The translations under genes and the position numbers were made by a program. This document shows, in pieces, positions 19,316 to 22,605 of a DNA stretch of 26,177 nt; the first letter of the stretch is position 1, and the number at the start of each line of letters is the position of its first letter. The notes below the pieces were generated by a model. That model saw only the letters and a program-made list of their open reading frames with translations, searched no databases and was not told where the DNA came from. Source of the stretch: Candidatus Eiseniibacteriota bacterium (lineage in GTDB: Bacteria > Eisenbacteria > RBG-16-71-46 > CAIMUX01 > VGJL01); assembly GCA_041946735.1 (NCBI GenBank), contig JBHGAY010000044.1, positions 1 to 26,177 on the forward strand, in the 5' to 3' direction.

Positions 19316-20563
19316 CTACTGCCCGTACATCTCGATGATCTCCTTCTTCCCCTTGCCGAGGATCCCGTACTTCGCGCCGACCTTCTTGAATGCCTCGAGC
19401 GCGCGGTCGAGATGCTCGATCTCGTGCGCCGCAGAGAGCTGCGTGCGGATGCGCGCCTGCCCCTTCGGCACGACCGGGAAGAAGAAGCCGATGACATAGA
19501 TCCCCTCGGCGTAGACGTCGCGCGCGACGTCGGCGGCGAGCTTGGCGTTGTAGAGCATGATCGGGACGATCGGCGAATCGCCGTCCTTGATGTCGAGGCC
19601 GATCTCCTTCACGCCCTTCCGCCAATAGTTCGTGTTGCGCTCGAGCTTGTCGCGCCGCTCGGTCGTGCTCGAGATGAGGTCGATCACCTTGATCGCGGCG
19701 CTCACGATGACCGGCGGCATCGTGTTGGAGAACAGGTAGGGACGCGCCCGCTGCCGGCACAGCTCGACGATCTCGCGCCGCCCGCTGACGCAGCCGCCCG
19801 ACGCGCCGCCGAGGCCCTTGCCGAGGGTCGTCGTGATCGCGTCGATCCGCCCGACGACGCCGCAATGCTCGTGCGTCCCACGGCCGGTCTTTCCCATGAA
19901 ACCGCTCGCGTGCGAATCGTCGACCATCACCATCGCGTCGTACTTCTCCGCGAGGTCGCAGATCACGTCGAGCTTCGCGACGTCGCCGTCCATCGAGAAC
20001 ACACCGTCGGTGATGATCATGCGAAGCCGCGCATCCTGGGTGAGCTGGAGCTTTTCCTCGAGATGCGCCATGTCGGAGTGCTTGTACGTCTCCTGGCGCG
20101 CCTTGCACAGGCGCATCCCGTCGACGATCGAGGCGTGGACGAGACGGTCGGCGATCATCACGTCCTCTTCGCCCAGCACCGCCTCGAAGAGGCCGCCGTT
20201 GGCGTCCATGCAGGACGGGAAGAGGATCGTGTCCTCAGTGCCGAGGAAGGCGGTGAGCTTGTCCTCGAGCGTGCGATGGATGTCCTGCGTCCCGCAGATG
20301 AAGCGGACGGACGACATCCCGTAGCCGCGCTCCTCCAAGCCGGCGTGCGCCGCCTTGACGACGTCGGGGTGGCTCGAGAGGCCGAGGTAATTGTTCGCGC
20401 ACAGATTGATGACCCGCTTCAGGCTTGCGCCCTCGGGGAACTCGACCTCGATCCACGCGTCCTGGGGAGAGTGGATGAACCGCTCTTCCTTCAGAAGCCC
20501 CTGCTCCTTGATCCCGCCCAGGATCGACTGGTAGTGATCCCGAGCCTTCTGGCTGTAGCCCAT
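19316..20563 (-). CDS. kbl: Glycine C-acetyltransferase (2-amino-3-ketobutyrate CoA ligase), PLP alpha-oxoamine synthase
   Basis: Motifs [48 protein letters not shown] (PLP Lys), RARPYLFSN and [11 protein letters not shown]. Confidence 0.88.
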
Positions 20564-20573
20564 CCTCGTCCCC

Positions 20574-20825
20574 CTATCCCTTCGTGAACTCCCGCACCAG
20601 CTTCGCGATCTTGTTGACCGAGTCGAACGCTTCCGGAGTCGCCTTCGCGTCCGGGATCGAAATCGAGTACTTCCTCTCGAGGAAGGTCTTCAGCGAGACC
20701 ATCGAGAAGGAGTCGACGATGCCGCTCGAGATGAGCGGTGTGTCGAGATCGACCTCGGTGTCGTCGTCGTCGTCCAGGTACTCCTTCTTCACGTAGTCCA
20801 GGATCGTCTTCTCCATCTCTTCCAT
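20574..20825 (-). CDS. Acyl carrier protein
   Basis: 83-aa acidic protein with the GIVDSFSMV phosphopantetheine-attachment motif and a GGAGG RBS. Confidence 0.9.
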
Positions 20826-20901
20826 CGGGTCCTCCGTCCTTTCCTGCGTTCCTGTCGTTCGGTCTCGGACCGTTCGCCCTTCTATTCCAGCCGTCGAGTC
20901 G

Positions 20902-22605
20902 TCAGTCGTTCTCGAGGGTCGAGATGTCGCCGATCGGCTCGTTCCATTCCTTCGCGCGCAGCAGGCGCCTCAGGATCTTGCCGCTCCTCGTCTTCGGGAG
21001 CGAGTCGACGAACTCGATCTCCTGCGGCATCGCGAGCGGCGAGAGCTTCTTGCGGATGAAGTTCATGATCTCGAGCTCGAGATCGGCGTTCGGCTTGAAG
21101 CCCGGCTTCAGCGCCACGAACGCTTTGACGACCTCCATGTTCACCGGATCGGGCTTGCCCACCGCCGCCGACTCGGCGACCGCGGCGTGCTCGAGCAGCG
21201 CCGACTCGATCTCGAAGGGGCCGACGAGATGGCCGCCCGTGTTGATCACGTCGTCGTCGCGCCCGACGAACCAGAAGTAGCCGTCCGCGTCGATGCTCGC
21301 CCGGTCGCCGCAGATGTACCAGCCGTTCTTGAACTTCGATTCGTAGGTCGTCGGATTGTTCCAGTAGGCACGCATCATCGACGGCCAGCCGGGACGCAGC
21401 GCGATCAGGCCGACCTTGCCCGTCCCCTTCTCGAGCGGAACGTGGACGGTCGGGTCGAGCACGCACGCCTCGATCCCGGGGAACGGACGCCCCATCGAGC
21501 CGGGCTTGACCGGCATCCCGGGGGCGTTCGTGATGACCATCGCGCCCGTCTCGGTCTGCCAGTAGGTATCGAGGAACGGCCGGCCGAACGCCTCCTTCGA
21601 CCAGAGGACCGCCTCGGCGTTGAGCGGCTCGCCGACCGAGGCCAGGTGGCGCAGGCTTGCCATGCTGTGCTTGCGGACCACCTCGGTCCCCTCGCGCATC
21701 AGCAGGCGGATCGCCGTCGGCGCCGAGTACCAGACGGTCACCTTGTAGCGGTCGATGAACTCGTACCACTTCTCCGTGCCGAAGCCGCTGTCCAGGACCA
21801 CCTGGGTCGCGCCGCACGCCCAGGGACCGATGATCCCGTAGGAGGTGCCGGTCACCCAGCCCGGGTCGGCGGTGCACCAGTAGATGTCGTCGTCCCGGAG
21901 GTCGAGGATCCACTTCGTCGTGATGAACTGCGAGACGATCGAGTTGTGGACGTGCACCGCGCCCTTCGGCTTTCCGGTCGTGCCCGACGTGTAGTGGAGG
22001 ACCGAGGGCGTCTCCCTGGTGACCGGATGGATCGGGAAGTGGTCGGGCTTCGGCGCCTTCTCCATGTCGAAGAGGACCTCGCGATCGGCCAGCTTCAGGT
22101 CTTCGCCGTCGACGACGATGATGTGCCGGAGCGAGGGCAGTTCGGCCAGGATCTTCCGGACCTTGCGGACGTGTTTCTTCTGCGTGACGACCGCCGAGGT
22201 CTGGGCGTCCGCGAGGCGGGTCAAGAGCGAGTCCTCGCCAAAGGCGGAGAAGAGCGGCTGCGCGATCCCTCCCATCTTCAGGATGCCCACGAAGCCGATG
22301 TACAGCTCCGGAATCTTGTCCATGAAGAGGCAGATGCGCTCCTCGGGGCGCAGGCCGAGCTGCTGGAAGAACGCGGCGAAGGCGTTCGTGCGCAAGCGCA
22401 GGTCGTCGTAGGTGTAGCGACGCACCTCGCCGGTGTGGCTCTCGTGGATCAGCGCCAGCTTGCCGCCGAGGCCGTTCTTGCAGTGCCGGTCGGCGCAGTA
22501 GTAGGCGATGTTGTAGATGCCGTCCTCGGGCCAGCCGAGTTCCCTCTCGGCGACCGACCAGTCGAATCCGGCCCTGCGCTCTTCGTAGGAACCGATGTTG
22601 CTCAT
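20902..22605 (-). CDS. acsA: Acetate/short-chain acyl-CoA (or acyl-ACP) synthetase, AcsA-like
   Basis: Motifs YTSGTTGKPKG, CTADPGWVTG, SVGEPLN, DTYWQTET, GRDDD and LPKTRSGKILRR, with a GGAGG RBS. Confidence 0.85.
   Translation of the reverse strand: MSNIGSYEERRAGFDWSVAERELGWPEDGIYNIAYYCADRHCKNGLGGKLALIHESHTGEVRRYTYDDLRLRTNAFAAFFQQLGLRPEERICLFMDKIPELYIGFVGILKMGGIAQPLFSAFGEDSLLTRLADAQTSAVVTQKKHVRKVRKILAELPSLRHIIVVDGEDLKLADREVLFDMEKAPKPDHFPIHPVTRETPSVLHYTSGTTGKPKGAVHVHNSIVSQFITTKWILDLRDDDIYWCTADPGWVTGTSYGIIGPWACGATQVVLDSGFGTEKWYEFIDRYKVTVWYSAPTAIRLLMREGTEVVRKHSMASLRHLASVGEPLNAEAVLWSKEAFGRPFLDTYWQTETGAMVITNAPGMPVKPGSMGRPFPGIEACVLDPTVHVPLEKGTGKVGLIALRPGWPSMMRAYWNNPTTYESKFKNGWYICGDRASIDADGYFWFVGRDDDVINTGGHLVGPFEIESALLEHAAVAESAAVGKPDPVNMEVVKAFVALKPGFKPNADLELEIMNFIRKKLSPLAMPQEIEFVDSLPKTRSGKILRRLLRAKEWNEPIGDISTLEND

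Follow-up and report, generated by a model that had tools for sequence, protein, structure and literature searches.

We analysed a 26,177-nt stretch of DNA from Candidatus Eiseniibacteriota bacterium (GenBank assembly GCA_041946735.1, contig JBHGAY010000044.1, positions 1 to 26,177; the whole stretch is called the window below). On its minus strand we found a three-gene cassette that encodes a ligase of the acetyl-CoA synthetase (Acs) type, a small free-standing carrier protein and a paralogue of the glycine C-acetyltransferase Kbl, here called Kbl1. We propose, with a probability of about 0.4, that an acetyl group travels on the private carrier between the ligase and Kbl1, which would link acetate, glycine and 2-amino-3-ketobutyrate/threonine in the condensing direction. 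The three-gene arrangement is not a chance neighbourhood, since it is conserved across phyla. The three open reading frames (ORFs) are:

20902..22605, minus strand: AcsA-type adenylate-forming ligase, 567 amino acids (aa), matching NF003313 and PF00501 + PF13193
20574..20825, minus strand: free-standing acidic carrier protein, 83 aa, matching PF00550
19316..20563, minus strand: Kbl1, a pyridoxal phosphate (PLP)-dependent alpha-oxoamine synthase of the glycine C-acetyltransferase family, 415 aa, matching TIGR01822

A preliminary description, made from the letters of the window alone, had called these genes acsA-like, acyl carrier protein (ACP) and Kbl-like, and the family scans (NF003313, PF00550, TIGR01822) agree with those names. 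It had listed non-conservation of the trio elsewhere among the findings that would speak against its reading, and the trio turned out to be conserved. A pattern scan with one genome per species found at least 599 candidate stretches, at least 565 of which encode a relative of the carrier. The 80 best of these species-level carrier matches were used as loci, in which genes were counted by tblastn. According to their deposited labels, they come from Eisenbacteria, Aminicenantes and other Acidobacteriota, Ignavibacteriota, Zixibacteria, KSB1, Krumholzibacteria, Fibrobacterota, WOR-3, Gemmatimonadota, Planctomycetota, Bacteroidota, Calditrichota and others. Kbl1 directly follows the carrier gene in 79 of the 80 loci, and the lone exception ends 19 nt past the carrier; where at least 300 nt of downstream sequence is present, the count is 77/77. 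The gap between the two genes is about 10 to 25 nt in most loci. A cassette-type ligase (at least 55% identity) is encoded upstream on the same strand in 71/80 loci. When only loci with at least 2200 nt of upstream sequence are counted, the ligase is found in 66 of 72 and is directly adjacent in 58. Among five tested genomes that have no ligase within 8 kb of the carrier, four encode it elsewhere (70–71% identity). No paper describing a ligase-carrier-Kbl cassette was found in a literature search.

The neighbourhood survey was also directed at the partner genes that the preliminary description had suggested. acpS, which encodes a phosphopantetheinyl transferase (PPTase), lies directly upstream in 31/80 loci, and tdh or a tdh-like gene occurs in nine. 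A second Kbl over the curated cut-off is encoded in 21/80 loci (four that were tested scored 602–649 bits on TIGR01822), and a gene of the GPR1/FUN34/YaaH acetate-transporter family in 3/80. These four are the sole recurrent metabolic neighbours; no recurrent lipid or tailoring genes were found in the 80 best loci. A DAO-family flavoenzyme gene follows Kbl1 in 2/80 loci. At one locus (L127, G038:C1) an aspartate-family gene adjoins the cassette: a 797-aa gene directly after Kbl1 (7126–9519) joins alpha/beta-hydrolase and homoserine dehydrogenase domains. Linkage was examined as well in 41 genomes, namely the host (G000) and 40 relatives. The carrier was detected in 16/41 at E ≤ 1e-27 (63–100% identity) with a Kbl match adjoining it in 16/16, and 12 of the 14 genomes with a cassette-type ligase also have the carrier.

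Kbl1 belongs to the Kbl family by the curated models. It scores 587.5 bits on TIGR01822 (cut-off 493) and is also over the cut-off of NF005394 (460). It shares 56% aa sequence identity with Escherichia coli Kbl over 386 residues and scores 478.9 bits against the E. coli Kbl structure 1fc4, with the TLGK motif aligned. The catalytic residues K249, H143, D215 and H218 are invariant in 28/28 Kbl1 sequences; the PLP-binding lysine of E. coli Kbl is Lys244. The serine palmitoyltransferase (SPT) models gave only 225.9–320.1 bits on Kbl1 vs cut-offs of 500–670, and Kbl1 is far below the cut-offs of the BioF and ALAS models. A tree was built from 110 Kbl-type rows, 103 of them different, after five high-scoring segment pairs with internal stops had been dropped, E. 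coli Kbl among them. The 83 carrier-adjacent rows form one clade amid the canonical Kbl rows (SH-aLRT 100, stem 0.41), and the deeper forks of the tree have support of 81–89. On TIGR01822 the carrier-adjacent copies score 556–616 bits and the stand-alone copies in carrier-free relatives 622–675 bits. At one locus (L003, G004:C3:388973-390068) the carrier-adjacent Kbl is split into two or three pieces that overlap and differ in frame, which may be a frameshifted gene or an assembly error.

We compared 76 distinct Kbl1 sequences with 24 canonical ones including E. coli Kbl (four long-branch rows and duplicates were removed). The Kbl1 signature consists of R79, F115, P116, R140, V142, K161, H167, V259, C269, A273, R303 and N339, and Kbl1 carries a C-terminal tail (K406, I409, G414) that is missing from the canonical sequences compared. 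Four signature residues (R79, R140, K161 and R303) and the Lys in the tail are positively charged. The added positive charge and the acidic carrier would fit a docking surface, which they do not show. Since Kbl1 coexists with a second Kbl in many loci and genomes (28 of 40 cassette genomes contain another Kbl-type match at E ≤ 1e-120), it is an addition and not merely the local kbl.

The ligase is only just over the cut-off of the acetate-CoA ligase model NF003313 (761.8 bits, cut-off 729) and is below that of TIGR02188 (519 bits, cut-off 725). Its closest solved relative is a 572-aa Acs (PDB 9g79, 573 bits). The host genome also encodes a canonical Acs, which scores 961.8 bits. Residues were counted in 65 full-length cassette ligases. 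The preliminary description had pointed out the Trp in DTYWQTET as the residue that restricts Acs enzymes to short acyl chains; DTYWQTETG is at residues 346–354 and the Trp is kept in 65/65. V251, T252, V324, W349 and the catalytic Lys543 are invariant in 65/65. The first four residues align with V310, T311, V386 and W414 of Salmonella enterica Acs, which we take to be its acetate pocket. The position of S. enterica Arg526 is occupied by Leu460 in 65/65 cassette ligases, where it replaces the conserved Arg of a GHR/GER motif; the Arg is kept in the host canonical Acs and in the solved AcsA-type and Acs chains. The residue at the R191 position is not conserved among cassette ligases (A, G, P or S in most), and there the clade has a conserved basic stretch of its own, Q-K-K-H-x-x-K-V-R-K (residues 142–151). 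According to a study of Acs, Arg191, Arg526 and Arg584 (S. enterica numbering) are critical for the CoA step (PMC10455477). The same study states that changing the Arg526 equivalent of an archaeal Acs to Lys or Gln lowered kcat 130- to 326-fold, that the Ala variant was not saturable with CoA and that Arg584 touches the 3'-phosphate of CoA (PMC10455477). As aligned, the cassette ligase lacks the intact three-Arg triad, one of the defining features of Acs.

The carrier is barely over the cut-off of PF00550 (21.9 bits, cut-off 20.8) and stays below the cut-off of every NCBIfam model. The best match among these is the OlsHI-associated ACP NF052616 (65.1 vs a cut-off of 130), and on the housekeeping AcpP model TIGR00517 it scores 19.2 bits, below the cut-off of 70.45. 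The protein is acidic (isoelectric point 4.4). The attachment-site motif is invariant in 27/27 sequences, including the serine of D-S-F, and Ser39 presumably bears the phosphopantetheine. When a carrier profile was searched against solved chains, the best matches were stand-alone carriers (PltL, PigG, DltC and an aminoacyl carrier; E from 6.5e-13 to 7e-5). Stand-alone peptidyl, D-alanyl and aminoacyl carrier proteins are loaded by adenylating enzymes. We also looked for natural fusions. Twelve longer proteins were found at E ≤ 1e-10, and four of the five examined look like frameshifted gene calls. One AcpS-carrier junction (P0126, three member sequences) keeps the frame, though a stop may have been missed there. 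None of these proteins was counted as evidence.

The Kbl1 dimer and the carrier were folded together as three chains with our own alignments, a setting in which the calibration counts hold only roughly. The score was 0.40 (runs 0.36, 0.40 and 0.42) vs 0.00 for the best of three controls. At least 85% of contacts are common to the runs, and the carrier has a predicted local distance difference test (pLDDT) value of at least 83. The calibration mark is reached by 116/157 solved complexes and 2/215 mismatched pairs; at scores of 0.60 or lower, only 18/157 solved complexes reach it, together with both passing mismatches. The model gives weak support to binding between Kbl1 and the carrier.

In the proposed reaction sequence, the AcsA-type ligase would adenylate acetate (ATP to AMP + PPi) and load the acetyl onto the phosphopantetheine of the 83-aa carrier instead of free CoA. 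Kbl1 would join acetyl-S-carrier and glycine in a PLP-dependent Claisen reaction to give 2-amino-3-ketobutyrate and holo-carrier, and the unlinked L-threonine 3-dehydrogenase (Tdh) of the host would connect 2-amino-3-ketobutyrate to threonine. We infer acetate as the acyl group from the pocket residues of the ligase. The carrier as thioester acceptor and donor is suggested by gene context, one ligase substitution and the weak fold score. For the net direction we lean, without confidence, towards loading and condensation, since every ligase-carrier pair known to us works in the loading direction and a private charged pool would push the unfavourable condensation. Such a pool can stay fully charged apart from the CoA pool, which helps most when the reaction is uphill. 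The same enzymes could also run the opposite way. In work said to be that of Marcus and Dekker in J Bacteriol in 1993, Tdh and Kbl of E. coli reportedly formed threonine from glycine, acetyl-CoA and NADH in vitro. A role apart from ordinary threonine cleavage is favoured by the second Kbl in 28/40 cassette genomes, by a tdh-kbl pair on another contig of at least one of these genomes (G058, C1:689306-691538) and by the canonical Acs of the host.

The host genome, which is 94.8% complete, was searched for the surrounding pathway. As the preliminary description had observed, the window contains neither tdh nor a PPTase gene; both are on other contigs. tdh is at C1:193789-194814 (NF003808, 415.3 bits vs a cut-off of 380) and the single AcpS is at C18:41868-42209. 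No match to homoserine dehydrogenase (hom) was found in the host genome, in a search whose control was found in 14/14 genomes. No thrB over the cut-off was found in the host, and the thrC-like match is sub-threshold only. A tblastn search of the host with E. coli queries detected trp genes, asd, dapA, glyA, tdh and kbl and found no hisG/D/H/A/F/I, argB/C/E/H, ilvA, ilvD, ilvI/H or thrB/C. The host looks broadly auxotrophic, because his, arg and ilv genes also have no match, and it looks like a peptide or amino-acid scavenger. Two other loci of the host contain related matches. At C34:2592-3893 a second, distant carrier-like match lies next to another AMP-ligase match. At C34:163545-164687 there is an alpha-oxoamine-synthase match (328.7 bits on TIGR01822) inside a 1587-aa frame, which may be a multidomain synthase.

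The preliminary description had proposed that the cassette and thrB/thrC would be anticorrelated. This part was not borne out. Besides the broad auxotrophy of the host, hom was not found in 35/41 genomes of the relatives set irrespective of the cassette, and among 40 cassette genomes from other phyla it is present in 16 and was not found in 24. Since lack of hom is independent of the cassette and 16/40 cassette genomes have hom, the threonine-pathway test does not discriminate. Zn-type Tdh was considered as an obligate partner and rejected: it is found in only 15/40 cassette genomes (E ≤ 1e-70; short-chain-type Tdh was not searched for). In the 41-genome set, Zn-type Tdh occurs in 11 of the 16 carrier-bearing genomes (E ≤ 1e-80). 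What stands of the earlier reading is the carrier-dependent use of acetate and glycine, in line with the conserved trio, acpS, tdh, the pocket residues in 65/65 ligases and the Kbl1 clade. Overall, comparative evidence supports the carrier-dependent reading well but does not prove it.

Two sets of observations weigh against it. The first concerns the acceptor. Both the ligase and Kbl1 exceed the curated cut-offs of ordinary CoA-using families, and the equivalent of S. enterica Arg584 is kept in 65/65 cassette ligases, an Arg for which an enzyme serving only a carrier would have no obvious use. At the Arg526 position, an Arg is also retained by other adenylation domains that load carriers. Arg526 touches the adenylate phosphate, not CoA, in the Acs study (PMC10455477). 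For these two reasons Leu460 is to be read as a clade signature, not as proof of an altered acceptor. The fold support for Kbl1-carrier binding is weak, and four relatives (G013, G021, G025 and G031) have the carrier and Kbl1 without a cassette-type ligase at E ≤ 1e-100. The second set concerns the condensing direction. The Kbl reaction favours cleavage. A host without his, arg, ilvA/D/I and thrB/C suits an amino-acid-degrading lifestyle; among relatives lack of hom is independent of the cassette, and hom is present in 16/40 cassette genomes. In some loci (e.g., L067 and L104) tdh, Kbl1 and a canonical Kbl are in one operon, which reads more naturally as catabolic.

These last points lead to a catabolic run of the same enzymes, which we consider rather unlikely. 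Tdh would oxidise threonine, Kbl1 would cleave the product onto the holo-carrier to give glycine and acetyl-S-carrier, and a reversed ligase would make ATP from this private pool (acetyl-S-carrier + AMP + PPi to acetate + ATP). Kbl is known to favour cleavage, some loci have tdh and the cassette in one same-strand run of genes, and most cassette-bearing relatives have, alongside a Tdh, no Kbl above the cut-off except Kbl1. A host that looks multi-auxotrophic must live on amino acids or peptides, and the DAO-family flavoenzyme encoded after Kbl1 in two loci is a possible glycine oxidiser. ATP formation by a reversed AMP-forming Acs has reportedly been found in Syntrophus aciditrophicus. However, we know of no ligase-carrier pair that runs in reverse, and five ATP-grasp_5 (ADP-forming acyl-CoA synthetase-like) matches in the host genome could already make ATP from acetyl-CoA. 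A second catabolic Kbl would also be redundant in the 28/40 cassette genomes that have another Kbl-type match, which in G058 is beside tdh.

The product of the cassette might instead be some other small alpha-amino ketone, built for instance from propionate or an amino acid other than glycine, for a signal, a cofactor or a lipid head group. The system would then resemble alpha-oxoamine synthases that depend on a carrier in secondary metabolism or in the synthesis of sphingolipids. Some Kbl1 changes are near active-site motifs (V142 beside the invariant His143, F115-P116, V259, C269 and A273), and carrier-dependent alpha-oxoamine synthases with other substrates are known (PMC9386255). We find this version improbable: the four acetate-pocket residues are invariant in 65/65 ligases, Kbl1 is over the Kbl equivalog cut-offs and far below those for SPT, BioF and ALAS, and the recurrent neighbours are only tdh, a second kbl, acpS and the acetate transporter, with no lipid or tailoring genes.

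It is likewise doubtful, to a similar degree, that the cassette consists of a normal acetyl-CoA synthetase and a CoA-dependent Kbl with a carrier gene placed next to them for an unrelated or regulatory reason. The family cut-offs, the retained Arg584 equivalent and the weak complex prediction would all be expected of ordinary enzymes. They do not account for the adjacency of carrier and Kbl1 in 79/80 loci of many phyla with short gaps, for the single clade of carrier-adjacent Kbl copies, or for acpS upstream in 31/80 loci; in addition, an invariant Leu replaces an Arg needed by Acs for the CoA step, and the host has a canonical Acs besides the cassette ligase. A sphingolipid or aminolipid reading was rejected, as the SPT models are far below their cut-offs and the OlsHI ACP, the best NCBIfam match of the carrier, is under its own. 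OlsH is stated to need no ACP (PMC12493201).

If the carrier-dependent reading is true, a CoA reaction known from textbooks of amino-acid metabolism has a counterpart that runs on a protein-bound acyl group. This would bear on the carbon flow that links acetate, glycine and threonine in anoxic sediments and soils, and on metabolic models of the phyla concerned and the threonine auxotrophies called in them. For enzyme engineering, it would offer a short-chain acyl-carrier ligase paired with a C-C bond-forming PLP enzyme. In its furthest form, which we hold to be unlikely, an ATP-driven, carrier-mediated reversal of Tdh-Kbl would provide a hitherto unrecognised route from glycine and acetate to L-threonine in sediment and soil bacteria without the aspartate-homoserine route; hom was not found in 24/40 cassette genomes or in the host. 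Annotation pipelines would give the three genes their usual labels (acetyl-CoA synthetase, acyl carrier protein, Kbl) and miss the unit, although at least 565 species-level genomes, mostly of uncultured phyla, keep it together.

Two further features of the locus were mapped:

19244..19279, minus strand: perfect GC-rich hairpin with a 14-bp stem and an 8-nt loop, 37 nt past the Kbl1 stop
22926..22954, minus strand: sigma-70-like promoter match (TTGACG, 17 nt, TATCCT), about 320 nt upstream of the ligase start, a weak candidate

The preliminary description had seen three genes in a tight run, each with a ribosome-binding site, and a hairpin at the end. The ORFs were recovered at identical limits, with gaps of 76 nt from the ligase stop to the carrier ATG and 10 nt from the carrier stop to the Kbl1 ATG. 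Shine-Dalgarno-like sequences precede all three genes: GGAGGG 6 nt before the ligase ATG (22605), GGAGG 5 nt before the carrier ATG (20825) and GGGGGA/GAGG just ahead of the Kbl1 ATG (20563). A 76-nt stretch with the hairpin folds at -46.7 kcal/mol vs -30.3 ± 3.5 in shuffles (z -4.74). The hairpin is likely the transcript end; a simple terminator scan missed it because its tail is T-poor. The promoter scan of 18900–23600 gave one match vs 0.4 ± 0.7 in shuffles, and the match is one to a consensus, not evidence of function. About 920 nt upstream of the ligase (22606–23527, 65–67% GC) contain no convincing ORF; they include a terminator-like hairpin of the upstream gene (23470–23501), and in many other phyla the position of this gap is taken by acpS or tdh. 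A riboswitch or leader upstream of the cassette was rejected: an Rfam gathering scan of the window and seven loci gave four matches (6S, TPP, SRP and tRNA), none of them beside the cassette.

The remainder of the window is unrelated to the cassette and encodes four PEP-CTERM proteins, a SNF2 helicase with a SWIM protein, and hydrolases. The PEP-CTERM genes flank the cassette on both sides (18301–19209, plus strand; 23528–24091, 24132–24752 and 24987–25796, minus strand). Their sorting signals consist of VPEP, a hydrophobic stretch and an Arg-rich tail, and three of the four genes match PF07589. The SNF2-family helicase (SNF2-rel_dom, DUF3670, Helicase_C; 13691–17101, plus strand) is directly followed by the SWIM zinc-finger protein (17140–18219, plus strand), a recurrent bacterial pair. 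A 944-aa ORF (4824–7658, plus strand) has GreA/GreB domains only in its C-terminal part (residues 736–886), and its long N-terminal part has no family match.

Four known systems were compared with the cassette. The AcsA-type acetyl-CoA synthetases (NF003313; PDB 9g79) share with the cassette ligase the family cut-off, the acetate pocket and the catalytic Lys. The cassette ligase differs in having Leu for Arg, the basic stretch at 142–151 and linkage to a carrier gene, and it is additional to a canonical Acs. The stand-alone carriers PltL, PigG, DltC and the aminoacyl carriers (PDB 2n5h, 7thn, 8jf2, 4h2s) are, like the cassette carrier, small and acidic with a single Ser site. However, the cassette carrier is under all of their family cut-offs and forms a family of its own, 63–88% conserved across phyla, and it is paired with an Acs-type ligase instead of an enzyme that activates amino acids.

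The Tdh-Kbl pathway (E. coli kbl-tdh) shows likeness in the chemistry expected of Kbl1, the equivalog cut-off, the invariant PLP-lysine motif and a tdh in the host genome. Unlike E. coli Kbl, Kbl1 is in its own clade, encoded after a carrier gene, has its own residue signature and tail, and coexists with a canonical Kbl. The textbook pathway needs no carrier, acetate ligase or acpS, whereas Kbl1 is accompanied by an acetate ligase and frequently by acpS. In the AasR-AcpR-SPT system of Caulobacter and other Rhodobacteria, a ligase loads a private carrier for an alpha-oxoamine synthase in bacterial sphingolipid synthesis, and the ligase does not acylate CoA or the housekeeping ACP (PMC9386255). 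The likeness is in architecture only: co-occurrence of the three genes for a ligase, a private carrier and an alpha-oxoamine synthase. The cassette ligase is of the Acs type with a short-chain pocket, not a long-chain one, the PLP enzyme is of the Kbl type and far under the SPT cut-offs, and the gene neighbourhood suggests a link to threonine, glycine and acetate rather than to lipids. Judged from its sequences, the cassette is not a member of the AasR-AcpR-SPT system; it appears to be Tdh-Kbl chemistry with AasR-AcpR-SPT architecture.

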